This document shows, piece by piece, positions 1-58,605 of a DNA stretch of 64,000 nt; the stretch's first letter is position 1; each line of letters starts with the position of its first letter. Made by a program: the position numbers and the translations under genes. Below the pieces are notes generated by a model. It did no database searches, was not told where the DNA came from, and saw only the letters and a program-made list of their open reading frames with translations. Origin of the DNA: Clostridia bacterium (lineage in GTDB: Bacteria > Bacillota > Clostridia > Christensenellales > JBMNLC01). Location of the stretch: NCBI GenBank assembly GCA_050952525.1, contig JBMNLC010000004.1:102437-166436 (forward strand), written 5' to 3'.

Positions 1-9
1 GTTTCCTTT

Positions 10-810
10 TTACCCTGCTGCAGCTGCCTGACGCAAGGTAAAAAGGATAATTTGCCTGGTAATGTCTTCTGCACGTCCGGCAGGTACGCCGCGTCGTATC
101 ATTTGCTCGATCAGTTCCGGTTGTTCAGCATCCAGAAGCCTAAGCATGGCGTCTGCCCGCTGCTGGAAATTCCTTGCGGCTGGGATACGGTTGATATTCA
201 CCAGGGTGAACCGGATGATATCGCTAACAATAGCCCGAGCAATAACGGTTGATATATTGAAAATATTTGTAAGACCAAGGAAGTTAGGGAATTGATTTTC
301 AAACGCCCGCAATATTCTTCTGACCTGAGCTTCGATATCAGGGGTCGGAAGAGGAGGAATTGTGACGATGTTCTGCAGTGTTACCCGAATGACACATCGG
401 ATATAATCATCGATGATCTCCTGAGGTATTCTGAATAACCTAAGCAGAACATCAACCACTCTGTCTTCCTGCATAAAACGTCGAAACAAGGTCGCTGTTC
501 GTTGCTGAAGATTGCCCGACACCTGGGCTGCATGATCCAGTACAAAGCGAATGATGCGTCTTGTTAAGGCTCTGGTAATTCGTCGCGGTACACCATATAT
601 TTCAACAAGGGAAATAGGTCTTTGGCAGCGTACCAATACAATTTCAAGGAGCTCTCCTACCTGATCCCTTTGTCTCGGAGTTCTTTCCTGCAAAGCGTCT
701 TCAGCCAATTCATTGCGAAGGTACTGTTCCAGTAAAGGGGTGATGGAATCAGCAAATCCGGGAACGGCGCCAGAGAGTCGTTCAAAAGGGTTTACATACC
801 TGTAAGGCAA
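10..810 (-). CDS. Hypothetical Arg-rich protein built from four ~55-aa tandem repeats
   Basis: ORF 10..843(-). A GGAGAGGAGG RBS lies 8 nt upstream of the in-frame TTG at 810. Four repeat units each end in a (V/I)P...I(I/R)RFTL-like helix (RRIIRFVL, IRCVIRVTL, DIIRFTL, QIILFTL). No family recognised. Confidence 0.55.
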   Translation of the reverse strand: MPYRYVNPFERLSGAVPGFADSITPLLEQYLRNELAEDALQERTPRQRDQVGELLEIVLVRCQRPISLVEIYGVPRRITRALTRRIIRFVLDHAAQVSGNLQQRTATLFRRFMQEDRVVDVLLRLFRIPQEIIDDYIRCVIRVTLQNIVTIPPLPTPDIEAQVRRILRAFENQFPNFLGLTNIFNISTVIARAIVSDIIRFTLVNINRIPAARNFQQRADAMLRLLDAEQPELIEQMIRRGVPAGRAEDITRQIILFTLRQAAAAG

Positions 811-994
811 TATATTCACCTCCTCTCCATGGGATATAAACAAATATTGCTACTACAGTATACGCCGGGATATGGTCTGAGGTGAAATGGGAGATAAAGA
901 ATGCTTCCGGTGTCCATTTCCAATATGGAAAGAAGGCTATGAAGTCGGCGGCTTTGATTAAACAAAGCAAGGAAACAATGGGACTGAAGGGGAA

Positions 995-1023
995 TTGTGA
1001 ATGAAAGACCTGCATGTTATAAT
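995..1023 (+). promoter_or_regulatory. Sigma-A-type promoter for the isomerase-araB operon
   Basis: TTGTGA (995-1000), 17-nt spacer, TATAAT (1018-1023) preceded by TGt (extended -10), ~45 nt upstream of the start codon. Confidence 0.55.
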
Positions 1024-1066
1024 TAATTAGAAAGTTCGTATATTATTGAAGAAGGGGGTCATGTTC

Positions 1067-2548
1067 ATGAGAAACATTCCTGATGTAAAGCTAGGGCTTG
1101 TGGCGGTAAGCAGGGACTGCTTCCCATTGGAGCTTAGCAAGAGAAGGAGTGAAGCGGTGGTTTCCGCCTGCAGAAGCAAGGGGATTGAGATTTTTCAGAC
1201 TCCGACGATTGTTGAAAACGAGAAGGATGTATTGAAAGCCTTGGAAGAGTTGAAGAATGCAGGGGTAAATGGGCTGGTGGTTTATTTGGGGAACTTTGGA
1301 CCGGAAGGCCCGGAAACCATGCTGGCTCAGAAATTCGACGGTCCTGCTATGTATGTTGCAGCAGCTGAGGAAACCCAGGATGATCTGATCGATGGACGTG
1401 GTGATGCATTCTGTGGTATGCTGAATGCTTCCTATAATCTGGCATTAAGGGAGCTGACTCCTTACATTCCCGAATATCCGGTGGGAACGGCTGAGGAGAT
1501 TGCCGACATGATATTCGATTTTCAGGATATCGCCAGGGTCATTATAGGGATTTCAAAACTTAAAATATTTGGTTTCGGACCAAGGCCTCAGGATTTTCTC
1601 GCATGCAATGCACCCATCAAGCCCTTGTATGATTTAGGGGTGGAAATCATGGAGAATTCTGAACTGGATCTATTCGAGTCCTTTAATGAGCATGCCGGTG
1701 ATGAAAGAATCCCGGCCGTCGTGCAGGATATGGAAGAGGAACTGGGGGATGGAAACAATCATCCGGGCATTCTACCTAAGTTAGCCCAATTTGAACTTAC
1801 CTTGCTGGATTGGATGGAAAAGCATATCGGGGCATCCGAATTTGCCGTATTCGCCAACAAATGCTGGCCGGCCTTCGAGAGGCAATTCGGTTTTGTTCCT
1901 TGCTATGTCAATTCAAGATTAGCCGCCAGGGGAATACCGGTTTCCTGTGAAGTGGATATCTATGGAGCTTTGAGTGAATACATCATTACATGCGCTACGA
2001 AAATGCCCGCTACCCTTTTGGATATCAACAATACCGTACCCAAGGATATGTATGATTCCAATCGGGATCGTTTTGCCGGCTATAAACTGAGTGACCTTTT
2101 TATGGGCTTCCACTGCGGGAACACGCCCATATGCTGTATGAAGGAAGCAGCTATGAAGTATCAGTTGATTCAGCATCGATTACTGGAACCCGATAAGGAA
2201 CCCGATATTACCCGGGGAACTTTGGAAGGGATCATCAGACCAGGTGAGATCACCCTTTTCAGGCTGCAGGGCACAGCAGACTGTGCTTCAAGAAGTTATG
2301 TAGCGCAGGGTGAGATTATTGACGTGGATCCAAAATCCTTCGGCGGAATAGGCGTGTTTGCCGTCAAGGAAATGGCAAGATTCTATCGCCATGTATTGAT
2401 CGGCAGGCATTATCCCCATCACGCCGGGGTCGGCTTCAAGCATGCAGGGAAGGTACTGTTTGCTGCGATGAAGATGCTGGGGATAGAAGAAGTATCCTTT
2501 AACCAGCCGACTTCCATGCTGTATAAGAATGAAAACCCATTCGGATAA
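1067..2548 (+). CDS. L-fucose/L-arabinose isomerase family protein (probable pentose/deoxyhexose aldose-ketose isomerase)
   Basis: ORF 1046..2548, ~490 aa with FucI/AraA-like layout. RBS GAAGGGGG (1051-1058) favours the ATG at 1067. Lies directly upstream of ribulokinase. Confidence 0.75.
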   Translation: MRNIPDVKLGLVAVSRDCFPLELSKRRSEAVVSACRSKGIEIFQTPTIVENEKDVLKALEELKNAGVNGLVVYLGNFGPEGPETMLAQKFDGPAMYVAAAEETQDDLIDGRGDAFCGMLNASYNLALRELTPYIPEYPVGTAEEIADMIFDFQDIARVIIGISKLKIFGFGPRPQDFLACNAPIKPLYDLGVEIMENSELDLFESFNEHAGDERIPAVVQDMEEELGDGNNHPGILPKLAQFELTLLDWMEKHIGASEFAVFANKCWPAFERQFGFVPCYVNSRLAARGIPVSCEVDIYGALSEYIITCATKMPATLLDINNTVPKDMYDSNRDRFAGYKLSDLFMGFHCGNTPICCMKEAAMKYQLIQHRLLEPDKEPDITRGTLEGIIRPGEITLFRLQGTADCASRSYVAQGEIIDVDPKSFGGIGVFAVKEMARFYRHVLIGRHYPHHAGVGFKHAGKVLFAAMKMLGIEEVSFNQPTSMLYKNENPFG

Positions 2549-2729
2549 GACACGAAGGTGCATTGGATCCAGATAATGCAGATATGGCAGAAGATAATAC
2601 TATACAGGAGAAATACATGGCGGGAGTGTTTTAAAGCGTGCAGGTGAATCTCGGCGACCGGTTTTATCAGAAGCTTATCCTAAGGAAAGAGTTAAAAATA
2701 GTCAGCAGATGGAAAGGAAGGAATGATCG

Positions 2730-4406
2730 TTGAGCAAAAAATATACAATCGGTGTAGACTTTGGCACCCAATCCGGAAGGGCGGTGCTGGTGGAAGTGGA
2801 CATCGGGGTAGAGGTTGCCACAGCTATAAAGGAGTACCCCCATGGTGTGATGGACGAATACCTTCCGGATGGGAAGACGAAATTGGATCCTGATTGGGCT
2901 CTGGAGCATCCTCAGGATTTCCTGGATGTGCTCCATGAAACGATACCGGCTGTTCTGGAAAAGGCTGGAGTATCTGCAGAAGACGTGATAGGTGTAGGGA
3001 TCGATTTTACCTCATGTACCATGCTTGCTGTGGACAAGGAAGGTACTCCCCTTTGTTTTTATCCGGAGTATCAGTCCAATCCCCATGCCTATGTAAAACT
3101 ATGGAAGCACCATGCCGCTCAGGATGAGGCAAACAAACTGAATCAGATTGCTGAAGAGAGAGGCGAAGATTTTCTTCAGCGCTATGGCGAGAAGATTTCA
3201 TCCGAATGGCTTTTTCCTAAAATATGGCAGGTACTTGATGAAGCCCCGGAGATTTATGAAAAGGCTGATCGATTCATGGAGCTGGCGGACTGGATCGTTC
3301 TTCAATTAACGGGGGAGGAAAAAAGAAACAGCTGTACCGCCGGCTATAAAGCCCTCTGGCATAAACAAAAGGGATATCCATCCAAGGATTTCTTTAAGGC
3401 CCTTGATCCAAGGCTCGAGAACGTAGTAGAAGAGAAATTAAGTACGGATATTTATCCCATTGGAAGCAAAGCAGGCGAAATTACTCCGGAGGCAGCCCGT
3501 CTGACAGGACTAAAACCGGGGACTGCCGTTGCCGTTGGTAATGTTGACGCCCATGTAGCGGTTCCTGCCGTAGGGATTACGGAAGAAGGAAAAATGCTGA
3601 TGATTATGGGTACCTCTACCTGCCATATGATATTGGGGAAGGAAGAGAAGATGGTACCAGGTATATGCGGTGTGGTAGAAGATGGAATCATCCCCGGCTA
3701 TCTGGGATATGAAGCAGGTCAATCCTGCGTGGGCGACCATTTTGAATGGTTCGTGGAGAATTATGTGCCTGCTGAGTATCAAAAAGAAGCGGAAGAGAGG
3801 GGCATGAATATCCACGATCTTCTGAGCGAAAAGGCACAGAAACTGAAAGTTGGGGAAAGCGGTTTAATCGCCCTCGACTGGTGGAACGGTAACCGTTCCG
3901 TCCTTGTGGATGTGGATCTCACAGGCCTTATTCTGGGATGCACTTTATTGACCAAGCCCGAAGAGATGTACAGGGCTTTAATCGAAGCCACCGCATATGG
4001 TACACGGAAGATTATTCAAACCTTTGAAGATCATGGTGTGCCGATCAAAGAACTGTATGCAGCGGGCGGAATTGCTGAAAAGAACGAAATGCTGATGCAG
4101 ATTTATGCGGATGTAACCAATCGGGAAATCCGGATTTCTGCTTCTTCCCAGACTCCTGCTCTGGGTTCAGCCATGTTTGGCGCTGTTGCGGCGGGTAAGG
4201 AAAGGGGCGGATATGACAGCATTGTTGATGCAGCCAAGGCAATGGCCCGGTTGAAGGATAAGGTGTATAAGCCCATACCTGAGAATGTAGAAATGTATGA
4301 TAAATTATACAGGGAATATGAGATACTCCACGATTATTTTGGACGAGGGACGAACGACGTAATGAAAAGACTGAAGGAGATCAAGAAACAGGTTACGAAG
4401 TCCTAA
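2730..4406 (+). CDS. araB: Ribulokinase (FGGY family)
   Basis: 558 aa. N-terminus [17 protein letters not shown] is typical of Gram-positive AraB; length and C-terminal FGGY domain fit. TTG start with an AAGGAAGGA RBS. Confidence 0.85.
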
Positions 4407-4429
4407 GGCCTATCCATAGTGCAGAAAGC

Positions 4430-4492
4430 GGGCAAGACGGAAACAATCCAGGGGAGGAGACGGATCCCGTGTTTATGTCTTGCCCTTTTTTT
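4430..4492 (+). terminator. Rho-independent terminator after araB
   Basis: GGGCAAGAC (4430-4438) pairs with GTCTTGCCC (4477-4485), followed by T7 (4486-4492). The loop is unusually long. Confidence 0.55.
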
Positions 4493-4524
4493 GTACCTAA
4501 AATGCATTCGAACAGGGGGATAGT

Positions 4525-5481
4525 ATGAAGAGGAAAGAAGTGGTTAAACGGGCGGTAGAGATGAGGAATCCTCCCAGGGTTCCAATTTTATTCTTTAATA
4601 AGGATACGGAGAAATCGGAAATTAAACTGGTGGGATACGAAACGGCTGCCGATTTTCCCTATAAGGGAACCAACATCTCAGAGTGGGGTTTTGAATGGCA
4701 AAGGTTGGATGATACCATGGGGCAGCCGAAAAACCATCCCATTCGGACATGGGCGGATTTTGAAAACTACATACCGCCCGATCCTGATGCAGCCGGCAGG
4801 TTTGAGCATCTGCCTGATGAAATCGCCCAAAACAAGGATCGCTACATCCTGGCGAGCCTGGGGATTACAGGATTCAACATGGTGACTTTCATACGAGGAT
4901 TTGAAAATACCTTGGAGGATTTATACCTGAACAGGGAGAGAATTGAGAAGTTGATAGACATGGTGTTTTCCTTTGAAAAGGGAATTATCCGTCATTACTG
5001 CAGTTACGAAATCGATGGCATCTCCTTCGGTGATGATTGGGGTACCCAGAACAGCCTGATGATTTCGCCTTCCCTATGGGGAAAGATTTTCAAACCCCGG
5101 TATAAGGAGCAGTTTGATCTGGTTCACTCCTATGGGAAGCATGTCTATTTCCATTCCTGCGGAAACATCATGGAGATCATTCCCGATCTCATTGAGATCG
5201 GAGTTGACATTCTGAATTTAAATCAGCCTGATTTGTTTGGGATTGAAAGATTGGGCCGTGAATATGGTGGGAAGGTTTGCTTTAATTGCCCTGTGGATCA
5301 TCAGACGGTTGCCATCAAGGGTACACGGGATGAGATATTTGATTATGTGAGAAGGCTGAATCAACATCTGGGTAGCTTTCAAGGAGGATTTATCGGTTAT
5401 ATCGAGGAATACCATAGTGTGGGAATGAGCGATCAAAACTATGCGTGGATTGTAGAAGCCTTTGAGACTTTGAACGGATGA
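4525..5481 (+). CDS. Uroporphyrinogen decarboxylase (URO-D)-like family protein, paralog 1
   Basis: 318 aa. URO-D/MtaA-like core FGDDWGTQNSLMISP...YFHSCGNIMEIIPDLIEIGVDILNLNQP. AGGGGGA RBS. Confidence 0.8.
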   Translation: MKRKEVVKRAVEMRNPPRVPILFFNKDTEKSEIKLVGYETAADFPYKGTNISEWGFEWQRLDDTMGQPKNHPIRTWADFENYIPPDPDAAGRFEHLPDEIAQNKDRYILASLGITGFNMVTFIRGFENTLEDLYLNRERIEKLIDMVFSFEKGIIRHYCSYEIDGISFGDDWGTQNSLMISPSLWGKIFKPRYKEQFDLVHSYGKHVYFHSCGNIMEIIPDLIEIGVDILNLNQPDLFGIERLGREYGGKVCFNCPVDHQTVAIKGTRDEIFDYVRRLNQHLGSFQGGFIGYIEEYHSVGMSDQNYAWIVEAFETLNG

Positions 5482-5493
5482 GGATGTGATGGA

Positions 5494-6621
5494 ATGAATT
5501 ATCGAGAACGGTTTGAGGCCACTTTGGAGCATAGGCCCTTGGACCGTGTTCCCTTTGATTTGGCGGGCACTTCACTGACGGGAATGGAACATAAGTATTC
5601 TATTGATAAATTAAGGGAATATCTTGGATTTACTCGCTCCTATGACGGGTGGTATGAAAAATTTGATGAACGAATCCTTCAGTATCTGGACATTGACATC
5701 AGGAGGGTAGGGGATATCCTGGAGCCCGAGAGCCCTTTGTCAGGCCGGATCGATGAGAATACTTATGTAGACTGTTGGGGGATAAAACGGGTATTTACCG
5801 GTTTGTACTGGGATATTCAGGATCCACCTTTAAAGGGAGCGGATCTTGATGATCTGAAAAGATATCCATGGCCGGATCCTGACAGAATTGATATAAAAAA
5901 AATGGAAGCATATAGGGAACAGGCCAAGCGCTTATACCTGGAAACAGATTACGTGGTTTGTGCAGAGCATCCGGTCTATGGTGTGCTGGAGCTGGGCTGT
6001 TGGATGTGCGGTTTTGACGATTTTCTGCTAAAGATGGCTCTGGATCCGTCCTTTGTACGGCATTTTTTTGATAAGGTTTTGGAGTATCAAAAGAAGATTA
6101 TCGAAATTTATTACGGTGCGCTGGGTGAATACATCCACTTTACAACCAGTGGGGATGATTTCGGTACCCAGACAGGCCCCTTTATGTCTCCTCAAATGTT
6201 TGAAACGCTGGTAAAACCTTATTATGAAGAAAGGATTGCTTACACGAAAAAGTTTACCAAAGCTCGATATTTTCACCATACCTGCGGTTCTGTATACTCC
6301 CTGATTCCCCATTTGATTGGTGCGGGAGTGAACATCCTTAATCCTATTCAGCCCGGAGCCAGGGATATGGAACCGGAGAAGCTGAAGAAGGCGTATGGAG
6401 ATCAATTGACTTTCTGGGGAGGCATAGATACCCAGCATACCCTTCCCTATGGGACGAAGGAAGAAGTGAAAGAAGAGGTGTGGAGAATCCTGGACGCCAT
6501 GGGAGCGGAAAGAGGTGGATATGTCCTGGCTCCGGCCCATAATATCCAGCCCGATGTGCCTCCGGAAAACATCATTGCCCTCTTCGAAGCAGGAAGGGAA
6601 TATTTTTCCCAGAGGCAATAA
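5494..6621 (+). CDS. URO-D-like family protein, paralog 2
   Basis: 375 aa. SGDDFGTQTGPFMSPQMF...FHHTCGSVYSLIPHLIGAGVNILNPIQP, the same subtype as paralog 1. Confidence 0.8.
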   Translation: MNYRERFEATLEHRPLDRVPFDLAGTSLTGMEHKYSIDKLREYLGFTRSYDGWYEKFDERILQYLDIDIRRVGDILEPESPLSGRIDENTYVDCWGIKRVFTGLYWDIQDPPLKGADLDDLKRYPWPDPDRIDIKKMEAYREQAKRLYLETDYVVCAEHPVYGVLELGCWMCGFDDFLLKMALDPSFVRHFFDKVLEYQKKIIEIYYGALGEYIHFTTSGDDFGTQTGPFMSPQMFETLVKPYYEERIAYTKKFTKARYFHHTCGSVYSLIPHLIGAGVNILNPIQPGARDMEPEKLKKAYGDQLTFWGGIDTQHTLPYGTKEEVKEEVWRILDAMGAERGGYVLAPAHNIQPDVPPENIIALFEAGREYFSQRQ

Positions 6622-6769
6622 AATACTTCTTTTTGTGCTAATCCATCTTTTTTTTGTTCTATCCCTCGACGCCGGCAGTTCTATTATAATAAAGGATGGC
6701 AGAATACAGGGCAGCGCTGAATGAAAAGGCTTCATTTATTGCTGCCTGGATTTGGAAGGGAGATAATCA

Positions 6770-7774
6770 ATGACAAGTCGAGAGCGTTTTTTAAAGGTAC
6801 TGCACTTTGAAAAGCCGGATGACAGGTTGCCTATGGTGGAATGGGCTCCGTGGTGGGATAAGACAATTGAGCGCTGGGAGCAGGAAGGGCTGCCCAGAGG
6901 GATGAGTCTGGAGGAATCCCTTCGGTATTTTGACTTAGATGTCATGATCATGCTGATGGCTTCCCCCATGTCTCCGGAATGTCCCAGACCTTCATCCCAT
7001 GGGGCAGGAATCGTCACGGACGAAAGATCCTACGAAGCGATAAGGCCTTACCTATACCCGAAATCATCTATTGAGAGCTTGAAAAAAACAGCTCTGGCCC
7101 TGAAGGAGCGGCATGAAAAGGGCGATATCATCATTCGTTTATGGCTGGATGGATTTTTTTGGTTTCCCAGATCTCTTTTTGGTATTGAGAATCATTTATA
7201 TGCCTTTTATGATTATCCGGAATTAATGCACCGCATGAATAATGATTTGTCAGATTACCTGATTCAAACCATAGAAGCCCTCTGCCCAATCCTGGTACCG
7301 GACATGGTAGGCTTTGCCGAGGATATGTCATACAATCACGGCCCCATGCTGTCATACGGGTTATTCAAAGAATTCTTGCTCCCCTATTATCAGAAGGTTA
7401 TCCCTTATCTCCGAGAAGCGGGGGTCAAGGTTCTGGTGGACAGTGATGGAAACATTGAAGATATGATACCTTGGATGTTGGAAGCCGGAATAGAAGGGGT
7501 GTACCCGCTGGAAAGACAGGCACAGGTCGATATCAAACGAATCCGTAGAAATTATCCGAGCTTTCTGATGATGGGCGGTTATGATAAGATGGTGATGTCA
7601 AAAGGGGAAGGGGCCATGCGGGCAGAGTTTGAGCGCATCCTTCCGGTGATGAAATCCGGAGGCTATATTCCTTCGGTGGATCATCAGACTCCGCCGGGCG
7701 TTTCCTTGGAAAACTACAATATTTATCTCCGGTTGTTCAAGGAATATGCACGAAAGGCTGTGAAGGAAGTCTGA
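6770..7774 (+). CDS. URO-D-like family protein, paralog 3 (second subtype)
   Basis: 334 aa. FAEDMSYNHGPMLS...GGYIPSVDHQTPP, clearly homologous to the ORF at 19518. Confidence 0.8.
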   Translation: MTSRERFLKVLHFEKPDDRLPMVEWAPWWDKTIERWEQEGLPRGMSLEESLRYFDLDVMIMLMASPMSPECPRPSSHGAGIVTDERSYEAIRPYLYPKSSIESLKKTALALKERHEKGDIIIRLWLDGFFWFPRSLFGIENHLYAFYDYPELMHRMNNDLSDYLIQTIEALCPILVPDMVGFAEDMSYNHGPMLSYGLFKEFLLPYYQKVIPYLREAGVKVLVDSDGNIEDMIPWMLEAGIEGVYPLERQAQVDIKRIRRNYPSFLMMGGYDKMVMSKGEGAMRAEFERILPVMKSGGYIPSVDHQTPPGVSLENYNIYLRLFKEYARKAVKEV

Positions 7775-7809
7775 ACGCCTCCGGCAGAATAAAAGAGTGC
7801 ACAACTTTT

Positions 7810-7836
7810 CTTGCAGTCAGCTGCAAGATTTTTTTT
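7810..7836 (+). terminator. Rho-independent terminator
   Basis: CTTGCAG-tcag-CTGCAAG hairpin followed by a T8 run. Confidence 0.75.
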
Positions 7837-7994
7837 GCTGATTCCCCGACAGGATGGCATATCTATTATAACGGTCAGAGTATGATTCTATAATAAGGAT
7901 ATGATGATAGGATTTCTTTGCCCGACTGGGAGGGCTGCCGGTTTTTGACATCATATTCGAGCTGTTATGGATAATAAAGGAAATATTGCGCAGG

Positions 7995-8023
7995 TTGACA
8001 TGCCAAAACATGAAGCATATAAT
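7995..8023 (+). promoter_or_regulatory. Consensus sigma-A promoter for the deoC-oxidoreductase operon
   Basis: Perfect TTGACA (7995-8000), 17-nt spacer, TATAAT (8018-8023). Leaves a ~105-nt leader before the deoC ATG. Confidence 0.7.
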
Positions 8024-8133
8024 GGACGTATACATACAAAATTTGGATGAATCCACAGAGTATCTTCGAGAAGATGCGATACCGGAAAAGGATAGGACAA
8101 GAAGGATCCGGATACTTGAGAGGAGGTCAGGTC

Positions 8134-8823
8134 ATGCTAAGCGTGAAAGATTTGGCGAAGATGATTGATCATTCCCTGCTGAGACCGGAACTGACCGTTG
8201 ATCAGGTAAGAGAAGGTTGCAGGCTTGCAAAGAAATATGGTACGGCATCGGTGTGTGTGAGGCCTTGTGATGTAGCCATTGCCAAAGAGGAACTGGAAGG
8301 CACTGATGTTTTGGTCACAACAGTTATTGGTTTTCCCCTCGGGGACAATACAACGGAAGTCAAGGTGTTTGAAACCGAACAAGCCATACGGGACGGAGCC
8401 CAAGAAGTGGATATGGTTTTAAATATTGGCAGACTTATCTCTCGTGACTTTGATTACGTGGAAAAGGATATTAAAGCCGTGGTAGATCTAGCCCATCAGA
8501 ATGGGGTCCTTGTCAAGGTCATTCTGGAGAATTGTTATTTGACCGATGACTTGAAAGAAGCTGCGTGCAGAATATCTGAAAAAGCGGGAGCAGATTTTGT
8601 TAAGACATCTACTGGCTTTGGTACAGGGGGTGCAACGGTCGAGGACATCAGACTAATGCGAAAAAACTGCAGCCCCAAAGTGAAGATAAAAGCTGCAGGT
8701 GGTATTCGAACTTATGACGCCGCACTGGCTGTATGGAAAGAAGGCGCAGTGCGATTGGGAGCAACCGCCACCAAGGCTATTCTTGAGGAAGCCAAAAAGA
8801 GAGAAGAGCTAGGGGGACAATGA
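8134..8823 (+). CDS. deoC: Deoxyribose-phosphate aldolase
   Basis: ORF 8047..8823. GGAGG RBS then ATG at 8134. IDHSLLRP, VCV.P and the Schiff-base lysine context ADFVKTSTGF are DeoC hallmarks. Confidence 0.85.
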   Translation: MLSVKDLAKMIDHSLLRPELTVDQVREGCRLAKKYGTASVCVRPCDVAIAKEELEGTDVLVTTVIGFPLGDNTTEVKVFETEQAIRDGAQEVDMVLNIGRLISRDFDYVEKDIKAVVDLAHQNGVLVKVILENCYLTDDLKEAACRISEKAGADFVKTSTGFGTGGATVEDIRLMRKNCSPKVKIKAAGGIRTYDAALAVWKEGAVRLGATATKAILEEAKKREELGGQ

Positions 8824-8877
8824 GAAACAGGCAGCGCGGAAAACCTGCAGCAAAAAGATGGGGGGAGACAAGAGAAA

Positions 8878-9903
8878 ATGGAAAAACTGCGCGTGGCAAT
8901 TATCGGGTGTGGAGCCATTCATAGGGTGCATGCCGATGCAATCGTGAACAGTGAGTTGGCTCAACTGAAATATGTTGTGGATATTCAGGCAGACAATGCT
9001 CGTAGTTCCGGAGAAAAGTACAGATGTCAATGGTACACGGACTATAAAGAAATCTTACAAAAAGATGATGTGGATGTCGTACATATCTGTACACCCCATT
9101 ATTTACATGCCGACATGACCATCCATGCCGTTCAATCAGGCAAGCATGCCTTTGTGGAAAAACCCGTGGTGTCGCATTGGAAGCAGGCTCGGGAACTGAT
9201 AGAAGAAACGAAGAAAAGCGGCTGTTATGTAGGAGTATGTTTTCAAAACCGCTTGAATCCCAGTTCGGTAAAGGCAAAGGAGATTCTTGACAGTGGCAGA
9301 CTGGGGAGAATATTGGGCATCAAGGGTCTGGTAACATGGTATAGGGATGAAGCATACTATCGGGAGAGCGGATGGAGGGGCTTTTTTGCTACTGAAGGAG
9401 GCGGAGTCCTCATCAACCAGTCCATCCATACTCTGGACCTTATGCAGTGGTTAGGCGGAGGCGTAGAAGCCGTAATAGGGAATGTCGCCACTAGGATACT
9501 GGGGAATGTCATTGAAGTAGAGGACACCGCAGATGCCACCCTGTTCTTCCGGAACGGAGCCAGGGGAATTTTCTATGCCACCAACTGCTATACGACCAAT
9601 TCCCCCGTAGAGATAGAAGTACATTGTGAAAAGGGGAGCTTACGGATTTATAATGGGGAGCTGTATATAATCAGCGATGGCCGGCAAACCAAGATTGTCG
9701 ATGAAAATTGTGAGGACAGCCCCTATAGATCCTACTGGGGAAAGAGTCATTCCTTGGCTATTCATAGTTTTTACCAAAGTATTCTTCATGATGAACCTAA
9801 GAATTTTATACCTGTAGAACAGGGAGTAGAAGCTGTAAAGATCATCGATGCCATTTACAAATCGTCTTCTACAGGTAATAAAATAATAATAAAAAATGAA
9901 TAA
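8878..9903 (+). CDS. Gfo/Idh/MocA family oxidoreductase
   Basis: 341 aa. N-terminal Rossmann LRVAIIGCGAIH and the EKP motif (AFVEKPV). Confidence 0.85.
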   Translation: MEKLRVAIIGCGAIHRVHADAIVNSELAQLKYVVDIQADNARSSGEKYRCQWYTDYKEILQKDDVDVVHICTPHYLHADMTIHAVQSGKHAFVEKPVVSHWKQARELIEETKKSGCYVGVCFQNRLNPSSVKAKEILDSGRLGRILGIKGLVTWYRDEAYYRESGWRGFFATEGGGVLINQSIHTLDLMQWLGGGVEAVIGNVATRILGNVIEVEDTADATLFFRNGARGIFYATNCYTTNSPVEIEVHCEKGSLRIYNGELYIISDGRQTKIVDENCEDSPYRSYWGKSHSLAIHSFYQSILHDEPKNFIPVEQGVEAVKIIDAIYKSSSTGNKIIIKNE

Positions 9904-9919
9904 GGATGAGGTGAAGGAT

Positions 9920-10693
9920 ATGAGTCAACCGGTAATTGCTGCGCAACTTTTTACCATTCGGGATTATACGGAAACCCCTGAAGATATTGCCCAAAGTATG
10001 AAAAAGATCAAGGAAATGGGCTATAATGCCGTGCAGGTTTCGGGATTCGGTCCCATTGAGCATCAACAGGTGAAGGATATCATGGACAGTCAAGGTCTCA
10101 CCATTTGTGCTACCCATATTGGATTTGACCGCCTGCAAAATGATCTGGAGGATGTCATTGAACAGCATAAGCTGTGGAATTGCAAATATGTGGGTCTGGG
10201 CAGTATGCCGGCCGAATACGCAACAAGCAGAGATGGCTATATCGCTTTCGCCAAGGAGGCTTCCGAGATTGCCCGGAAGCTGGCCGACAATGGCCTCCGC
10301 TTTATTTACCATAACCATCATTTCGAGTTTATGAAGTTCGATGGGGTAACGGGAATGGAAATTCTTTTTGAGGAAACAGACCCGGAGGTCTTTGACTTTG
10401 AGCTTGATACATATTGGATCCAGGCAGGGGGAGCCAACCCTGTAGACTGGATATATAAAGTCAAGGGTCGTATGAAGGTGATCCACTTTAAGGACATGGG
10501 AGTAAGTAGTGAGAGACAGGTCATCATGACCGAGGTTGGTGAGGGAAACCTGAATTGGCCTGCCATTATTCAGGCGTGTAAAGAAACGGGTGTGGAATGG
10601 TGTCCTGTGGAGCAGGATATCTGCCAGCGAAATCCCTTTGAAAGCCTGGCGATCAGCCTGGAGAATTTAAAGAAGCTTGGCTTGCAGGCATGA
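9920..10693 (+). CDS. Sugar phosphate isomerase/epimerase (xylose-isomerase-like TIM barrel)
   Basis: ORF 9896..10693. RBS GAGGTGA favours the ATG at 9920. ~257 aa with the AP-endonuclease-2/xylose-isomerase-like pattern (YNHHFEF...D.YW...H.KD). Confidence 0.75.
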   Translation: MSQPVIAAQLFTIRDYTETPEDIAQSMKKIKEMGYNAVQVSGFGPIEHQQVKDIMDSQGLTICATHIGFDRLQNDLEDVIEQHKLWNCKYVGLGSMPAEYATSRDGYIAFAKEASEIARKLADNGLRFIYHNHHFEFMKFDGVTGMEILFEETDPEVFDFELDTYWIQAGGANPVDWIYKVKGRMKVIHFKDMGVSSERQVIMTEVGEGNLNWPAIIQACKETGVEWCPVEQDICQRNPFESLAISLENLKKLGLQA

Positions 10694-10725
10694 GGACATC
10701 GTGAAAGCCCAAGGGAGGTATGAGA

Positions 10726-11583
10726 ATGAAACGTTTTATCCTGTCTGCATTTGCAGATGAGATTGATGCTGACCTGACAATGCAGATAGATGTACTGGAG
10801 CAGCATGATATTCGATATATCGAAATGAGGGGCGTAAACGGAAAAAATCTGGTGGACTATTCCATCGATGAAGTGAAAGAGATTAAAGAACAATTGGAAA
10901 GTCGCGGCTTTAAAATCTCCGCTATCGGCTCCCCAATCGGAAAGATTGGGATTCGTGATGATTTTGCTCCCCATCTGGCCCTGTTCAAGCATACTTTAGA
11001 GATCGCTCAAATAATGGAAACGAACTACATCCGGATGTTCAGTTTCTTCATGCCCAAGGGGGAGAATCCCGATCAATACAGAGATCAGGTCATAGAGCGC
11101 TGGAGAGAGTTTGTAAAAGCTGCAGAAGGAAAGGGGATTACTCTGCTCCATGAGAATGAGAAGGGTATATATGGTGATACGCCGGAACGCTGCCTGGATT
11201 TACTCGAGACTTTGTCCTGCGATTACGTGAAGGCTACCTTTGATCCGGCTAACTTTGTCCAGTGTGATGTGGAGACATATCCCCGTGCTTTTCAAATGCT
11301 GAAGGATCATATTGTCTACCTGCATATTAAGGATGCCCTGTACAGCAATCACCAGGTTGTTCCTTCAGGTCATGGTGACGGGAAGATAAAGGAAATTCTT
11401 ACAGCACTGTGGAATATGGGATTTGAAGGCTTCCTTTCTCTTGAGCCCCACTTGGGTAATTTCGAAGGCTTTGCTGCACTGGAGCCGGGGACACCGGCTG
11501 CTGATTTGCCCGAATGTGGACCCAGGCAGTTTGCCATAGCAGCCCATGCACTGAAAAAAATAATCTCTGAGCTGGAAAGGTAG
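10726..11583 (+). CDS. Sugar phosphate isomerase/epimerase (xylose-isomerase-like TIM barrel), second copy
   Basis: ORF 10720..11583. GGGAGG RBS 7 nt before the ATG at 10726. LHENE...FDPANF...LHIKD...LSLEPH metal-ligand pattern. Confidence 0.8.
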   Translation: MKRFILSAFADEIDADLTMQIDVLEQHDIRYIEMRGVNGKNLVDYSIDEVKEIKEQLESRGFKISAIGSPIGKIGIRDDFAPHLALFKHTLEIAQIMETNYIRMFSFFMPKGENPDQYRDQVIERWREFVKAAEGKGITLLHENEKGIYGDTPERCLDLLETLSCDYVKATFDPANFVQCDVETYPRAFQMLKDHIVYLHIKDALYSNHQVVPSGHGDGKIKEILTALWNMGFEGFLSLEPHLGNFEGFAALEPGTPAADLPECGPRQFAIAAHALKKIISELER

Positions 11584-11592
11584 GGGAGAATC

Positions 11593-12753
11593 GTGGATAA
11601 GGTTAGAATCGGTATTATCGGAATCGGTAATATGGGAAGCGGACATATGGAGTATCTGTTGGCAGGTGAAGTCCCCAATGCAGAACTGACAGCAGTATGC
11701 GATATTAAACCGGAGCGGTTAAGATGGGCTAAAGAGCGGTTAGGCGATAAGATACGATACTTTGATAACGCAGAAGCCTTAATGGATTCTAAGGCAGTGG
11801 ACGGTGTCCTTATTGCTACTCCCCATTATGATCACCCGATCCTGGCTATCGAAGCATTTAAGAGGGGCCTACATGTGTTGGCGGAAAAACCGGCAGGGGT
11901 ATATACCAAGAAGGTTGCCGAGATGAATGAAGCTGCAAAAAAAAGCGGCAAGGTTTTTGGGATCATGTACAACCAGCGAACCAATCCCCTGTATCAAAAA
12001 TTCAGAGATTTGGTAAAATCGGGGGAACTGGGAGAAATAAAGCGAACGAACTGGATTATCACCGATTGGTATCGATCACAGAGTTACTATGATTCCGGTG
12101 GATGGAGGGCTACCTGGAAAGGAGAAGGCGGAGGAGTTCTTCTCAATCAGTGTCCCCACAACCTGGATTTGTGGCAGTGGATTTGTGGAATGCCCGTTCG
12201 GGTGAGGGCTTTCTGTTCCTATGGCAAATACCATGATATCGAAGTTGAGGACGATATGACCGCATATGTGGAATATGAAAACGGTGCAACAGGGGTTTTT
12301 ATCACTTCTACAGGAGAAGCCCCGGGGACCAATCGTTTTGAAGTGACCGGTGATCGCGGAAAAATTGTTCTGGAAGACGGCAAACTGACATTTTGGAGGC
12401 TGCGTGTATCGGAGAGGCAGTTTAATCGCGAATATAAAGGGGGATTCGGAAGCCCTGAATGTTGGCGCTGTGATATTCCCGTCAGAGGAGTGGAAACAGC
12501 CCATAAAGGGATCACCACCGATTGGGTGAAGGCTATCCTGAAGGGCACACCATTGCTGGCACCGGGGGTAGAAGGCATCAATGGGCTTACGATCTCCAAT
12601 GCCATGCATCTGTCCTCCTGGCTTGATGCATGGGTGGATATCCCCTTTGATGAAGATCTCTTCTATGAAAAGCTTCAGGAAAAAATAAAAAGCTCTACTT
12701 TTCAGAAAAAAACCGATGGGAATAAACTATTGGACGTTGAAGGAACGTTCTAG
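11593..12753 (+). CDS. Gfo/Idh/MocA family oxidoreductase
   Basis: 386 aa, GTG start after an AGGGGAG RBS. VRIGIIGIGNMG Rossmann motif and VLAEKP motif. Confidence 0.85.
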   Translation: MDKVRIGIIGIGNMGSGHMEYLLAGEVPNAELTAVCDIKPERLRWAKERLGDKIRYFDNAEALMDSKAVDGVLIATPHYDHPILAIEAFKRGLHVLAEKPAGVYTKKVAEMNEAAKKSGKVFGIMYNQRTNPLYQKFRDLVKSGELGEIKRTNWIITDWYRSQSYYDSGGWRATWKGEGGGVLLNQCPHNLDLWQWICGMPVRVRAFCSYGKYHDIEVEDDMTAYVEYENGATGVFITSTGEAPGTNRFEVTGDRGKIVLEDGKLTFWRLRVSERQFNREYKGGFGSPECWRCDIPVRGVETAHKGITTDWVKAILKGTPLLAPGVEGINGLTISNAMHLSSWLDAWVDIPFDEDLFYEKLQEKIKSSTFQKKTDGNKLLDVEGTF

Positions 12754-12763
12754 CTTTCATGTG

Positions 12764-12806
12764 CAAAACGGAATGGATACCGCTTAAAGGCATCTATTCC
12801 GTTTTG
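12764..12806 (+). terminator. Probable terminator of the deoC-oxidoreductase operon
   Basis: CAAAACGGAAT (12764-12774) pairs with ATTCCGTTTTG (12796-12806). The T tract is weak. Confidence 0.5.
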
Positions 12807-13057
12807 TCCGTACTGGACAATTTTATGCGATGGAAACGAAACGGAAACCAAGCTGTACCCCGATATATTCCTCAATTGCAACGCTTAACCGGAAAATGCT
12901 GGGCGTTTATAGGATGCGAGTCTATTTCACAAGATAAGCGAGGTATGTTGTGTACGGATGGATTTATGGATTTTTTGGCTACAATTGCGGTTTGGGAAAG
13001 ATCAAAGGACAATTCGCATATGAATAGAATAATTCATAAGTTTTAGGGGGGATATGT

Positions 13058-13252
13058 TTGAAACACTGGACAGCTCAGGATTATATCCGTAATATTTGTG
13101 AAGGTTCGCCATGCGCAGGACAGGTAAAAACCTATAAATTATCCGAGGAAGAGAGGCAGGCTATCATTGCCAAGTACGGTCCTCCGAAAGGAAAGCCGGG
13201 AAGGGTTTCAAACTTTGACATAAAAAGGAAGAAAGATAGAAGCTTGAGGTAA
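13058..13252 (+). CDS. Small hypothetical protein (64 aa, basic C-terminus)
   Basis: TTG start 6 nt after a GGGGGG run, followed by a strong terminator. No family recognised. Confidence 0.3.
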   Translation: MKHWTAQDYIRNICEGSPCAGQVKTYKLSEEERQAIIAKYGPPKGKPGRVSNFDIKRKKDRSLR

Positions 13253-13291
13253 CCTAAAAAGATATTTTTCCTACTCGTATGGAAAGGTACA

Positions 13292-13327
13292 GCAAAGGGT
13301 GCTTTACGTCTGTAAAGCACCCTTTGC
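13292..13327. terminator. Bidirectional terminator
   Basis: Perfect 16-bp stem GCAAAGGGTGCTTTAC / GTAAAGCACCCTTTGC with a 4-nt loop, between convergent genes. Confidence 0.8.
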
Positions 13328-13342
13328 TTGTCATGGATCGGG

Positions 13343-14512
13343 TTATAGGAAAGCCTCGCGGGCTTCTTTGATCATCTCAGGGATATTGAGCTTGTATTCA
13401 CACCAGGGGAGGCATTCGCCGCATTCGATGCATTCCTGCATATCGTATTTTTTCTCCTTGTACTGTTCGGAGAAGGCTGATGTTTCCTTGCCCAGTCGTT
13501 TACTGATTGTATAACGGGAATATATTGATAGTATCCCGGGAAAATCGACTTCCTGAGGACATGAGAATTTTTCCAGACAGTGCATACACTCACGGCATAC
13601 ATCCCGCATACTGGGGGCTACTTTATCCGCTTCCTGAATCAGAAGCGACAATTTCTCCGGGCTCATCCGCTCTCTGCAGGCAGTTTCAATGTTCATCTCC
13701 ATCTGTCGGATGGAGGTTGCACCGGCATCCACAGTTGTAATATAGGGGTTGCAAAGGCAAAAGTCCAACATGGCGGGATAATCAATCGAGATGTATTCCT
13801 TGAGTATATTATAGATAGGAGGCATACTGTTGCCGCTAAAAGCCTTCATGTTAACAATACCAATGTCCTTCTTATATAGATACTCGAAAATGTTAACAGG
13901 ATTATCCTCACTTAGAGAGCGATTGAACACATTGTAAGGGAGTTCCACTACCTCGAAGATCCCTGTATCAGTGGCTGCCATGATCTCCTCCGTATCATGG
14001 TAATGGCTGGAGAATCCGATGTGGTTGATATAGCCATCTTTCTTCAGTTCTTGAATTCTGTCCAGCACGCCCGATTTAAGCATAGTCGTCCAACGATCCT
14101 TGTTGATGCCGTGGAAAAAATACACCAGCTTAATATCCTTGTCACCGATCTTCAGATCACCCTGCCCTTCTATTCCCAGCTTACCCCGGCTTGTAAACAA
14201 ATCGGCTTCCAAATCCTCCAGTGTATATCCGTGGCCTTTTGTAACGATTACAATGGGTTCGCTCAGATGCGGATGGTTACGGATAGCTTTTCCAACCAGG
14301 ACTTCGCTTTCGACCAGCGCCCCTTCATCATTATGCCCTTTGTATGCTCTTGCAGTATCCACCAGATTGATTCCCTGGCCGAGCACAAAGTGAAGTAACT
14401 GCTCGGCTTCATCAACCGTATTCATGATTCTAAGGTTCATCGCTCCGAAGCTCAGCTCAGTTACCCAAAGATTGGTTCGACCTAGCCGTCTTCTTTTGAT
14501 TTCCCGTTTCAT
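13343..14512 (-). CDS. Aldo/keto reductase with C-terminal Cys-rich (Fe-S-type) domain
   Basis: ORF 13343..14623. AGAGGGGTGA RBS before the ATG at 14512 (MKREIKRRRLGRTNL). AKR core followed by CRECMHC...C and CIECGEC...C cysteine clusters. Confidence 0.8.
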   Translation of the reverse strand: MKREIKRRRLGRTNLWVTELSFGAMNLRIMNTVDEAEQLLHFVLGQGINLVDTARAYKGHNDEGALVESEVLVGKAIRNHPHLSEPIVIVTKGHGYTLEDLEADLFTSRGKLGIEGQGDLKIGDKDIKLVYFFHGINKDRWTTMLKSGVLDRIQELKKDGYINHIGFSSHYHDTEEIMAATDTGIFEVVELPYNVFNRSLSEDNPVNIFEYLYKKDIGIVNMKAFSGNSMPPIYNILKEYISIDYPAMLDFCLCNPYITTVDAGATSIRQMEMNIETACRERMSPEKLSLLIQEADKVAPSMRDVCRECMHCLEKFSCPQEVDFPGILSIYSRYTISKRLGKETSAFSEQYKEKKYDMQECIECGECLPWCEYKLNIPEMIKEAREAFL

Positions 14513-14755
14513 CACTATATCACCCCTCTTTGCTTCTATGTATATTTTACCATATATAGATCTTTTCCGGTACCACATAATTGTCCATACCGGACGGTTA
14601 GGCCGGAAAGGATGGCTATCCATATGCCTGATAGAATCTTTAAAGGAAATGGGGACTGAAATGTAGAATGTTAGATTTAGGATTTACATATGAATAGAAA
14701 GACTTGGAGTGCACCCATAGGGATCTGAATATCCAACGAACAGGGAAAGGGTGAG

Positions 14756-20678: not shown

Positions 20679-20701
20679 GGATTGACAAATTGATGAAAAA
20701 A

Positions 20702-20739
20702 GGACTGTTCGTGAACATTTCACGAACAGTCCTTTTTTT
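20702..20739 (+). terminator. Rho-independent terminator
   Basis: 14-bp stem GGACTGTTCGTGAA / TTCACGAACAGTCC followed by T7. Confidence 0.9.
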
Positions 20740-20774
20740 ATATTTGCTTTTCATGTTTATTTTACAAAATCTAC

Positions 20775-41251: not shown

Positions 41252-41499
41252 ATTCTGGCAATTACGGATTAGAACAATTGCAGGGTTACCCACAGAGAAT
41301 ATCCCGGAATCCGGTTTTCCGCTTCAATCCTATCTGTCAAAATCAAATTATAGTATATGAAGGCTTTTTGCCGATCTATGTAGTAAAATAAAACTGTGTC
41401 AGAAAAAGATATGAACATGCTGATAAGGGGGCAGTACCATATGATATCTGCCACGGCAAGCATATTGCCCCTGTCAGCTTGGTGGAAGGAGAGGATCAG

Positions 41500-58449: not shown

Positions 58450-58455
58450 GTGATA

Positions 58456-58605
58456 GAAAAGAGGGCTGAATTCCTATTATATAGGATACGGAGGAACCAA
58501 CTATGGGGTGAATCTGCTTGCTTCATCAAGCAGTAGGGGGTGCCTTCTCCTCCGAACCCGACAGCTAACTTCGGAAGCCCAGGGAATCTTGCATTCCCGT
58601 AAGAC
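58456..58605 (+). promoter_or_regulatory. c-di-AMP riboswitch (ydaO/yuaA motif)
   Basis: Contains the conserved blocks CUGAAUUCC, ACGGAGGAACCA, GGGGUGAAUC and CCGAACCCGACAGCUAACUUCGGAAGC in the order and spacing of the ydaO motif. It sits in the 5' leader of a cell-wall hydrolase, a typical ydaO-regulated gene class. Confidence 0.8.

Follow-up and report, generated by a model that had tools for sequence, protein, structure and literature searches.

HemE, the founding member of the uroporphyrinogen decarboxylase (UroD) fold, works without a cofactor. Corrinoid-dependent O-, S- and halogen-demethylases of the UroD superfamily are also known (PMC10418091). S-methyltransferases of the superfamily have a His-Cys-Cys metal site; in O-methyltransferases, one or both cysteines are replaced by Glu, Asp or a non-coordinating residue (PMC10418091). 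In the aryl-ether O-demethylases, the methyltransferase I (MT I), i.e., the enzyme that moves the methyl group from the substrate to a corrinoid protein, has carboxylates or non-ligands in place of the Cys ligands and works with a separate corrinoid protein, an ATP-dependent RACo/RamA-type activase and a methyl-tetrahydrofolate (methyl-THF) methyltransferase (PMC10418091). Most bacterial systems studied keep the genes for the donor methyltransferase, its corrinoid protein and the tetrahydrofolate (H4folate) methyltransferase in one cluster (PMC10418091). A corrinoid methyltransferase operon can be led by a PocR-AraC regulator, as MtaR of the Eubacterium limosum methanol system shows (PMC13602510). 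Methyltransferase homologs of the superfamily also occur in non-methanogens as MtaA-like (Mlp) proteins, which in type 1 mlp clusters are accompanied by corrinoid proteins and Ram/RACE activases, with no H4folate methyltransferase nearby; Mlps are >25% identical to SCMTs, have His-Cys-Cys sites and are found among sulfur and selenium metabolism genes (Kountz et al., PMC10418091). Here, we describe four genes of this fold (P1 to P4) in a 64,000-nt stretch of a Clostridia bacterium genome (contig JBMNLC010000004.1; hereafter, the window). The first three lie in a predicted operon with an aldose isomerase and a ribulokinase.

A first-pass annotation of the window had stated that O-demethylation lacks an established enzyme in this fold. 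Given the demethylases described above, that statement is too broad; it holds for sugar O-demethylation. Our literature search found a single sugar O-demethylase, a P450 for 6-O-methyl-galactose; it found no characterised sugar-acting UroD-fold enzyme, and no account of how anaerobes handle the methyl-etherified sugars of pectin, xylan, algal and microbial glycans. The P450, which demethylates 6-O-methyl-D-galactose in marine Bacteroidota, needs O2 and releases formaldehyde (PMC6292453, PMC9400963). We propose that P1–P4 are most likely B12-dependent demethylases, because their relatives elsewhere are tied to corrinoid proteins. Corrinoid dependence is probable. That the substrate is a sugar methyl ether falls slightly short of an even call. 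The combined statement, that P1–P4 are substrate-specific corrinoid-dependent methyltransferases of O-methyl sugars that draw on a shared hub, is in our judgement evenly balanced.

All four genes are intact in the window, as judged from the open reading frame (ORF) listing and Pfam. In a Pfam scan of the ORFs, their PF01208 scores (45.7–82.2 bits) all exceed the gathering score of 23.9 bits that served as the threshold for membership of the URO-D family. The four paralogs, their division into two subtypes and the motifs listed in the first-pass annotation are all borne out by PF01208, alignment, BLAST and structural models, and the two subtypes are real. P1 and P2 (the HxC subtype) are 29% identical (E 1e-25); the alignment shows GDDWGTQ and HSCG in P1, and GDDFGTQ and HTCG in P2. 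P3 and P4 (the DxD subtype) are 36% identical (E 6e-41), with AEDMSYNHGP and GGYIPSVDH in P3, AEDICYNHGP and GGYIPTCDH in P4, and D(S/T)DG common to both. Across subtypes, pairwise BLAST gives 21–25% identity.

AlphaFold models built from family alignments reached a predicted local distance difference test score (pLDDT) of 93 for P3 and 95 for P2. Both models superimpose on human UROD and on MtaA (4ay7) with template modelling (TM) scores of about 0.65–0.72, confirming the fold. In Foldseek searches of the PDB, the top match of P3 was human UROD (TM 0.70) and that of P2 was MtaA 4ay7 (E 1.7e-15, TM 0.65/0.71); for both proteins, UROD or MtaA ranked first, the other of the two second, and MetE after them. 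By sequence, a PDB search returned no close solved structure, only marginal matches to UROD, MtaA and CdmB (E 1e-3 to 1e-2).

Curated models do not place P1–P4 in any of the named families. On the NCBIfam models for HemE, MtaA and CmuA, overall scores are 17–53 bits against cut-offs of 235–400. For HemE (TIGR01464, cut-off 302.95), P2 scores 24.3, P3 16.9 and P4 24.8 bits, and P1 has no match. For MtaA and CmuA (TIGR01463 and NF040654, cut-offs 235.4 and 400), the best is P2, with 48.6 and 52.8 bits, respectively; P1, P3 and P4 reach at most 28 bits. The PF01208 matches begin at profile position 96–161 of 346, and the N-terminal part cannot be aligned by sequence. In HemE, substrate-binding and catalytic residues lie in the N-terminal half (human Arg37, Arg41, Asp86 and Tyr164). 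Judged from these scores, P1–P4 appear to be divergent URO-D-fold enzymes, neither HemE nor MtaA.

The residues that may bind metal were read from alignments. In a profile alignment, HTCG of P2 falls on LHICG of MtaA, and P2 H349 on the Cys of MtaA APGCG. The spacing of these P2 residues, 2 and 77, agrees with the His-x-Cys...Cys zinc motif of Methanosarcina barkeri MtaA. Residues H262, C264, H349 and N350 are invariant in the P2 family, together with a GCWMCGF motif; the invariant residues of the P3 family are E184, D185, D224, D226, D304 and H305. Of these, D224, D226 and H305 (with D304 alongside) occupy the ligand columns of P2 and MtaA and are invariant in 30 family members, and P4 carries D-x-D and D-H at the same columns. 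The putative ligand set from the alignment is therefore His-Cys-His in P2 and Asp-Asp-His in P3 and P4; P1 has HSCG, and its third ligand is uncertain. The His-x-Cys...Cys zinc triad of the S-methyltransferases is complete in none of the four aligned proteins. The comparison with HemE and MtaA proposed earlier, including a check of the zinc ligands, thus recovered the fold and the His-x-Cys of P2, with scores below the cut-offs and no Cys as third ligand. As aligned, both subtypes would be consistent with the O-type side of the published ligand rule. Nearly all of the 239 URO-D ORFs in the loci that we fetched belong to the HxC or the DxD class.

Some further observations concern metals. In the GCWMCGF motif of the P2 family (P2 residues 168–174), C169 is invariant and C172 nearly so; the motif is absent from P1, P3 and P4, and its cysteines could be extra metal ligands or a redox pair. 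A CobW/COG0523 GTPase lies beside a 453-aa URO-D protein in Caldicoprobacter algeriensis (locus L005, 5105–7395), and a Zip transporter gene lies directly upstream of a P3 ortholog (L006, 9251–9991). These zinc-related neighbors of URO-D paralogs hint at a metal requirement.

The evidence for corrinoid dependence comes from the neighbors of orthologs. In several unrelated lineages, orthologs of P1, P2 and P3 that are 43–70% identical to the window proteins lie in operons with corrinoid machinery (a corrinoid protein, RACo, DUF2284 and PocR-AraC). For P3, the arrangements are as follows. In locus L011, the corrinoid-system genes come first (RACo, PocR-AraC, corrinoid protein, MetH-activation-like domain), and an AraC regulator, a DxD URO-D and the P3 ortholog (70%) come after them. 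A single strand of L088, from a Ruminococcus metagenome-assembled genome (MAG), carries the P3 ortholog and a DxD paralog together with a corrinoid protein, DUF2284 and RACo. In L056 (Eubacteriales), PocR-AraC is followed by a divergent series of corrinoid protein, DUF2284, MtaA-like URO-D, RACo and P3 ortholog (60%). In C. algeriensis (L005), PocR-AraC, a corrinoid protein, CobW and a URO-D lie 5 kb from a 74% identical P3 ortholog that abuts FGGY kinase genes. For the HxC subtype, L153 has a MetH-activation-like protein, RACo (RACo_middle and RACo_C_ter), a corrinoid protein (B12-binding_2 and B12-binding) and PocR-AraC; divergent to these genes lie orthologs of P2 (51%) and P1 (43%), the latter with a DDHCYI signature identical to that of P1. 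In L124, a P2 ortholog lies next to a corrinoid protein, in a row with two sugar ABC permeases, three URO-D genes and GH2. In L099, a MetH-activation-like gene adjoins a P2 ortholog, and L061 is also counted among the loci linked to the corrinoid system. Four corrinoid proteins were observed in 1.29 Mb of P3 loci versus ~0.3–0.9 expected, a rough expectation that assumes one or two such corrinoid proteins per 3–4 Mb genome. The tight operon arrangement in independent lineages is more persuasive than this count. As a separate observation, the gene directly after the P2 ortholog in L124 (11147–11623) encodes an OMPdecase/HUMPS protein, which could be of the hexulose-phosphate synthase or the keto-gulonate-phosphate decarboxylase type.

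The window itself contains no B12-binding, RACo, pterin-binding methyltransferase or haem-pathway gene, according to Pfam on all large ORFs and tblastn with corrinoid-protein and RACo seeds. In this respect, the first-pass annotation was right. It had gone on to treat the paralogs as lacking corrinoid partners altogether, and this is not supported: the ortholog operons contain corrinoid protein and RACo, and a corrinoid protein behind PocR-AraC occurs in the same samples as the window operon, apparently on the same contig. The orphan appearance arises from viewing 64 kb alone. Using a corrinoid protein of Caldicoprobacter as the query, we retrieved a very large conserved corrinoid-protein family. 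One member, P0255, is 83% identical to the query and carries the NCBI name "corrinoid protein [Clostridia bacterium]". It has the domains PF02607 and PF02310, and it scores 207.8 bits on TIGR02370 ("methyltransferase cognate corrinoid protein"), below the cut-off of 215.3. Its longest contig is 365,319 bp, exactly as long as the contig of the window, and it co-occurs with the operon in samples SRR31065934, 3300064082 and SRR31066034. The genes around it encode a B12-binding radical-SAM protein, PocR-AraC, the corrinoid protein and an SBP_bac_5 ABC transporter. This B12-binding radical-SAM protein contains DUF4080 and closely precedes the hub corrinoid protein in each of two unrelated genomes, one being that of the window organism (L173, 6454–8199; L178, 8055–9818).

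Relatives show fuller versions of this hub. The orthologous corrinoid protein of Mahella australiensis (complete genome) is preceded by PocR-AraC and a methyl-THF:corrinoid methyltransferase (NF005719, 374 bits, cut-off 259) and followed by a MetH-activation-like domain and by RACo with a 2Fe-2S domain; no URO-D gene lies near it. Of two other family members, one has the corrinoid protein with RACo, and the other has PocR-AraC with the corrinoid protein only. The clustering that is usual in described systems appears to be split here, with one hub and many dispersed donor-specific enzymes.

The sugar part of our proposal comes from the operon (Table 1). The gaps are 119 nt between ribulokinase and P1, 13 nt between P1 and P2, and 149 nt between P2 and P3, and isomerase, ribulokinase, P1, P2 and P3 form a predicted five-gene transcription unit. 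The true start of the isomerase is probably the ATG near 1068. Fucose_iso_C is the only Pfam family of this protein; its NCBIfam match is weak (68 bits against a 700-bit cut-off), and searches of NCBIfam and PDB gave no curated equivalog and no sequence relative. Because P1–P3 are predicted to be co-transcribed with genes for an aldose isomerase and a ketose kinase, the product of demethylation would seem to be an aldose that is then catabolised, which would make the substrate an O-methyl sugar.

Table 1. Positions in the window of P1–P4, the genes upstream of P1 and nearby transcription signals
Feature	Position	Strand	Remarks
Promoter-like site	995..1023	+	TTGTGA-17-TATAAT with TG extension, 10/12 consensus matches; predicted, ahead of the operon
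FucI-like aldose-ketose isomerase	1046..2548	+	First operon gene; Pfam Fucose_iso_C, E 1.6e-21
Ribulokinase, AraB-type FGGY kinase	2730..4406	+	TIGR01234, 809.7 bits against a cut-off of 583; Pfam FGGY_N and FGGY_C
P1	4525..5481	+	318 aa, short, HxC subtype; PF01208 E 1e-12
P2	5494..6621	+	375 aa, MtaA-like, HxC subtype; PF01208 E 5e-23
P3	6770..7774	+	334 aa, UROD-like, DxD subtype; PF01208 E 9e-16
Intrinsic-terminator-like hairpin	7809..7836 (hairpin 7810-7827)	+	CTTGCAGTCAGCTGCAAG and a T8 run; directly after P3
Perfect sigma-70 promoter	7995..8023	+	TTGACA-17-TATAAT, 12/12 consensus matches; ahead of deoC, marks the feature boundary
P4	19518..20678	+	386 aa, DxD subtype; PF01208 E 6e-12
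P4 terminator	20694-20740		20-bp stem; downstream of P4

The sugar-catabolic locus described in the first-pass annotation is smaller than was thought. The isomerase and the ribulokinase do belong with P1–P3; deoC and the oxidoreductases are separate from this unit, because the terminator and the perfect promoter lie between. Those genes form an operon of their own (8047–12753): deoC (TIGR00126, 253 bits), two GFO oxidoreductases, of which the first weakly resembles IolG or levoglucosan dehydrogenase, and, between the two, a pair of xylose-isomerase-like TIM barrels. The gene set suggests oxidation followed by rearrangement, as in a pathway of the keto-sugar or inosose type, with the aldolase last. 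P4 is likewise not in the sugar locus: it begins 19 nt downstream of sbcC, behind sbcCD, and is followed by a copper ATPase. The divergent gene at 10–843 (minus strand) was considered as a regulator and rejected; it encodes a 277-aa repeat protein with Arg/Ile-rich segments and has no Pfam or NCBIfam match. In L001 and L002, it adjoins spore-coat (TGL) genes.

The families to which P2 and P3 belong are large. Among the scored candidates, 4,759 homologs of P2 and 5,970 of P3 were found at E <= 1e-10, many of them 55–75% identical across phyla, and the P4 family comprises 283 representative clusters at E <= 1e-30. The P3 family is present in at least 584 species-representative genomes, among them members of Bacillota, Atribacterota, Latescibacterota, Chloroflexota, Lentisphaerota, Planctomycetota, Verrucomicrobiota (including an Akkermansia MAG), Fibrobacterota, Spirochaetota (Treponema) and Armatimonadota. 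Members of the P2 and P3 families are annotated merely as "uroporphyrinogen decarboxylase family", "methyltransferase" or "hypothetical". The exact operon is known only from metagenome assemblies, the window being 100% identical to L001 and L002. L002 is a 365,319-bp JGI contig (3300053716, Ga0534105_00284), in which, by coordinate arithmetic, the window lies reversed at ~198,884–262,883. Spore-coat genes upstream of the window indicate a MAG of spore-forming Clostridia, and the nearest named relatives are in Caldicoprobacter, where P3 orthologs are 73–74% identical.

Neighborhoods of P2 and P3 orthologs vary widely. The gene order of the window was rejected as a conserved pathway, and the conservation check suggested earlier came out negative: isomerase, kinase, deoC, GFO and TIM genes are not kept beside these orthologs. 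AraC-type regulators are the most common neighbors (23 of 80 loci). Other frequent ones are URO-D paralogs, GFO oxidoreductases, sulfatases, a GH78-like rhamnosidase, enolase-superfamily proteins, glycyl-radical enzymes and sugar ABC permeases. Similarly, 148 immediately flanking proteins matched 143 Pfam families, AraC first, followed by ROK, GT2, AP_endonuc_2, sugar-binding proteins and esterases. Our ORF calls for the fetched loci were coarse and overlooked some divergent paralogs.

Glycan-degrading enzymes recur around these genes, including GH2, GH29, AXE1, GH78, a GH140-type apiosidase, a CE15 glucuronyl esterase, GH4 and sulfatases. In a Victivallales MAG, GH2, a GH29 fucosidase and AXE1 accompany three URO-D genes, two of which are orthologs of P1 (58%) and P2 (64%). 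In Caldicoprobacter oshimai, the order is GH78 rhamnosidase, URO-D, a protein of unknown function, URO-D, P3 ortholog (73%), PfkB kinase and GH140-type apiosidase. A Defluviitaleaceae MAG from termite gut has URO-D, GH2, P3 ortholog, GH2 and CE15 glucuronyl esterase and, further along, URO-D, DUF1638, corrinoid protein and GH4. GH78 and GH140 enzymes act on rhamnogalacturonan II, which bears 2-O-methyl-fucose and 2-O-methyl-xylose, and CE15 esterases cleave esters of 4-O-methyl-glucuronic acid. The earlier suggestion that the paralogs act on a carbohydrate gains from the recurrence of their families in carbohydrate loci across many phyla; the substrate itself is what we infer from this setting.

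As to pairings, P1 orthologs (50–58%) adjoin P2 orthologs in L089, L091, L116 and L142. An obligate P1–P2 pairing, as in a heterodimer, was rejected: every true P1 ortholog has a P2 ortholog close by, but an adjoining P1 is lacking for most P2 orthologs. In L078, a P4 ortholog (59%) lies 3 kb from a P3 ortholog. Pyruvate formate-lyase-like (PFL-like) glycyl-radical enzymes adjoin P2- and P3-family genes in Anaerolineae and Chloroflexia (L008, 7819–11119; L013, 13214–15331), and they occur in 5 of 80 P3 loci.

Taken as MT I enzymes, P1–P4 would move a methyl group from its substrate to a corrinoid protein, as in anaerobic O-demethylases. They would have no private corrinoid protein; a shared hub elsewhere in the genome would serve them, here P0255 behind PocR-AraC, with RACo reductive activase and methyl-THF:corrinoid methyltransferase also present in the hubs of relatives. 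At least one of P1–P3 would bind an O-methylated aldose or small glycoside at its metal site (His-Cys-His in P2, Asp-Asp-His in P3), and the methyl group would pass to Co(I) of the corrinoid protein. The freed aldose would be converted to the ketose by the FucI-like isomerase and then phosphorylated by the ribulokinase, and the methyl group would be handed on to tetrahydrofolate.

Several points weigh against this proposal. The placement of P0255 on the contig of the window is deduced from the equal 365,319-bp lengths and from co-occurrence in samples, rather than read directly. No RACo or methyl-THF methyltransferase was located for the window genome, and its hub is only partly located. The first-pass annotation had foreseen a co-regulated corrinoid system elsewhere in the genome as a counter-argument to its own proposal. 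A corrinoid system exists; comparison of the operon promoter with the promoters of PocR and the corrinoid protein gave no common motif above shuffled controls. Similarly, an Rfam scan found no cobalamin riboswitch in the window. Of the 160 loci scanned, just 9 have a component of the corrinoid system in the fetched flanks; the corrinoid link is therefore indirect for most of the family, and many of those contigs are short. The metal sites are deduced from alignments, and the position of P4 behind sbcCD is uninformative about sugars. The sugar cannot be named from an AraB-equivalog kinase and an uncharacterised isomerase, and the P1–P3 operon has neither a transporter nor a glycosidase that would name it. 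Lastly, a sugar methyl ether, being aliphatic, is chemically harder for Co(I) to attack than an aryl methyl ether, and our literature search found no precedent for Co(I) demethylation of sugar methyl ethers. In the literature on Clostridium cellulovorans, cobalamin-biosynthesis proteins appear in a substrate-specific proteome list. We set this aside as circumstantial: the growth substrate of that list is not evident from the passage, and B12 has other uses on pectin sugars.

The corrinoid link could be correct and the donor a different one. P1–P4 might take the methyl group from a methoxylated aromatic of the ferulate, sinapate, syringate or vanillate type, from methanol or from another small methyl compound, with the sugar neighbors reflecting joint use of plant biomass. 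The characterised O-demethylating MT I enzymes of the superfamily all act on aryl methyl ethers (PMC10418091), BD-FAE (ferulic-acid-esterase type), CE2/GDSL and CE15 esterases are among the ortholog neighbors, and the combination of PocR-AraC and a corrinoid protein recalls the methanol system that MtaR controls in E. limosum (PMC13602510). We nevertheless consider a non-sugar donor unlikely: P1–P3 are in a tight unit with an aldose isomerase and a sugar kinase, the unit holds no aromatic-catabolic gene, glycosidases, sugar transporters, sugar kinases and AraC regulators make up the great majority of neighbors over the 160 loci, and the hosts are sugar fermenters of many phyla rather than acetogens. 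The presence of both subtypes in the window operon would also fit a division of labor like that of methanogens, in which the DxD proteins (P3 and P4) load the corrinoid protein from the substrate and the HxC proteins (P1 and P2) are of the methyltransferase II (MT II) type, passing the methyl group from methyl-Co(III) to a thiol or other acceptor. P2 has MtaA as its best structural match and keeps the His-x-Cys of the zinc motif, and L056, which lacks a pterin-binding methyltransferase, has an MtaA-like URO-D as the partner of its P3 ortholog. However, L088 and L011 join a corrinoid protein to two DxD proteins and no HxC protein, and L153 and L124 join one to HxC proteins only; thus, each subtype works with a corrinoid protein without the other. 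In addition, the third ligand of P2 is His rather than Cys, such that the published rule speaks against an S-methyltransferase, and the Mahella hub provides an MT II of the methyl-THF type. These observations make a division of labor very unlikely. A strict rule of one HxC plus one DxD protein per corrinoid operon was also rejected, each class occurring alone with a corrinoid protein.

A different possibility is that P1–P4 are cofactor-independent sugar enzymes that reuse the URO-D barrel, e.g., as a uronic or keto-acid decarboxylase, an isomerase or a hydrolase, and that the corrinoid neighbors serve other paralogs. HemE needs no cofactor, URODs are the closest structures to P3, ~94% of the scanned loci have no corrinoid gene nearby, and GFO oxidoreductases, which are able to make keto sugars, are frequent neighbors. 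Same-strand operons that join P3 orthologs (60–70%) and P1/P2 orthologs (43–51%) to a corrinoid protein and RACo argue against it. So do the HemE model scores of 17–25 bits against a 303-bit cut-off, the failure of the Pfam matches to cover the N-terminal part of the profile, where the substrate-binding Arg and Asp of HemE lie, and the lack of any acid-sugar pathway gene in the P1–P3 unit. We consider a cofactor-free role very unlikely as well. Between the two activities that the first-pass annotation had put forward, O-demethylation is now the better candidate, and decarboxylation is left with no positive evidence.

The remainder of the window is of separate interest. Its sole Rfam match is a c-di-AMP (ydaO/yuaA) riboswitch at 58454–58591 (87.6 bits), far from the operon and directly upstream of a gene for an NlpC/P60 peptidoglycan hydrolase with SH3 and PG-binding domains (58623–59765). 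Between the sugar operons and sbcCD, an aldo/keto reductase is fused to a 4Fe-4S dicluster domain (13343–14623, minus strand). At 34647–35736, 38227–39517, 41479–42887 and 50403–51577, the genes for a GFO oxidoreductase, an SBP_bac_5 binding protein, a sulfatase and a glycoamylase each appear to be split into two ORFs that overlap or adjoin. These may be pseudogenes or assembly frameshift errors; independent assemblies are 100% identical over window positions 1–16621, and the split-ORF regions lie outside that overlap.

If P1–P4 are corrinoid-dependent sugar O-demethylases, a function class would be available for a large block of misannotated genes, given that the P2 and P3 families have thousands of members and no specific annotation. 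Their orphan appearance would be explained by a shared, distant partner, glycan degradation would be tied to B12 supply in gut, rumen, sediment and digester communities, and the enzymes would be new ether-cleaving biocatalysts. We tentatively extend the proposal to a widespread, undescribed route of anaerobic sugar O-demethylation, in which dozens of UroD-fold methyltransferases in glycan loci, of a His-Cys-His class and an unrecognised Asp-Asp-His class, would feed one B12 hub of corrinoid protein, RACo and methyl-THF methyltransferase. We hold this extension to be less likely than not, well behind corrinoid dependence itself, and the same caution applies to its candidate substrates, such as 2-O-methyl-fucose, 2-O-methyl-xylose, 4-O-methyl-glucuronate, and algal or bacterial methyl sugars. 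Such a route would do without oxygen what the P450 sugar demethylase does with it, and many anaerobes would then depend on B12 to degrade polysaccharides. Cultured relatives exist in Caldicoprobacter and Mahella.

Among described systems, the P450 demethylase is a functional analogue of the proposed route, in that removal of the O-methyl group opens sugar catabolism; its fold is unrelated, and the methyl group is not passed to a corrinoid. HemE/UROD has the same fold as P3, and P3 H305 aligns with the His of the C-terminal "LGHG" motif of HemE. However, the two are only 14–19% identical, FDSW and TKGG of HemE are replaced by EDMSYNHG and DSDG, and the window offers no haem-pathway context. MtaA/MtbA/MtsA (4ay7) are the best structural match for P2, but at 17% identity, with NCBIfam MtaA scores of 18–53 bits against a cut-off of 400, and with Cys where P2 has His as third ligand; P3 and P4 have Asp-x-Asp in place of His-x-Cys, and none of P1–P4 has a coenzyme M context. 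Unlike the Mlps, P1–P4 are more distant, have putative O-type ligand sets and lie among sugar genes. The aryl-ether O-demethylases, i.e., OdmB/VdmB (Acetobacterium dehalogenans), MtvB (Moorella) and MtoB (Methermicoccus), share the UroD-superfamily barrel with P1–P4, and the same set of partners lies beside P1–P3 orthologs in L011, L056, L088 and L153. In contrast to those enzymes, P1–P4 are recognised by no curated model, the likeness being drawn from published descriptions; the P1–P3 genes are in a sugar operon without a corrinoid protein or MT II of its own; where those enzymes cleave phenyl methyl ethers, P1–P4 are predicted to act on aliphatic sugar methyl ethers; and the hosts are sugar fermenters of many phyla, not acetogens. 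The machinery is thus known, while the hub-and-spoke layout, the sugar context and the Asp-Asp-His subtype appear to be undescribed.

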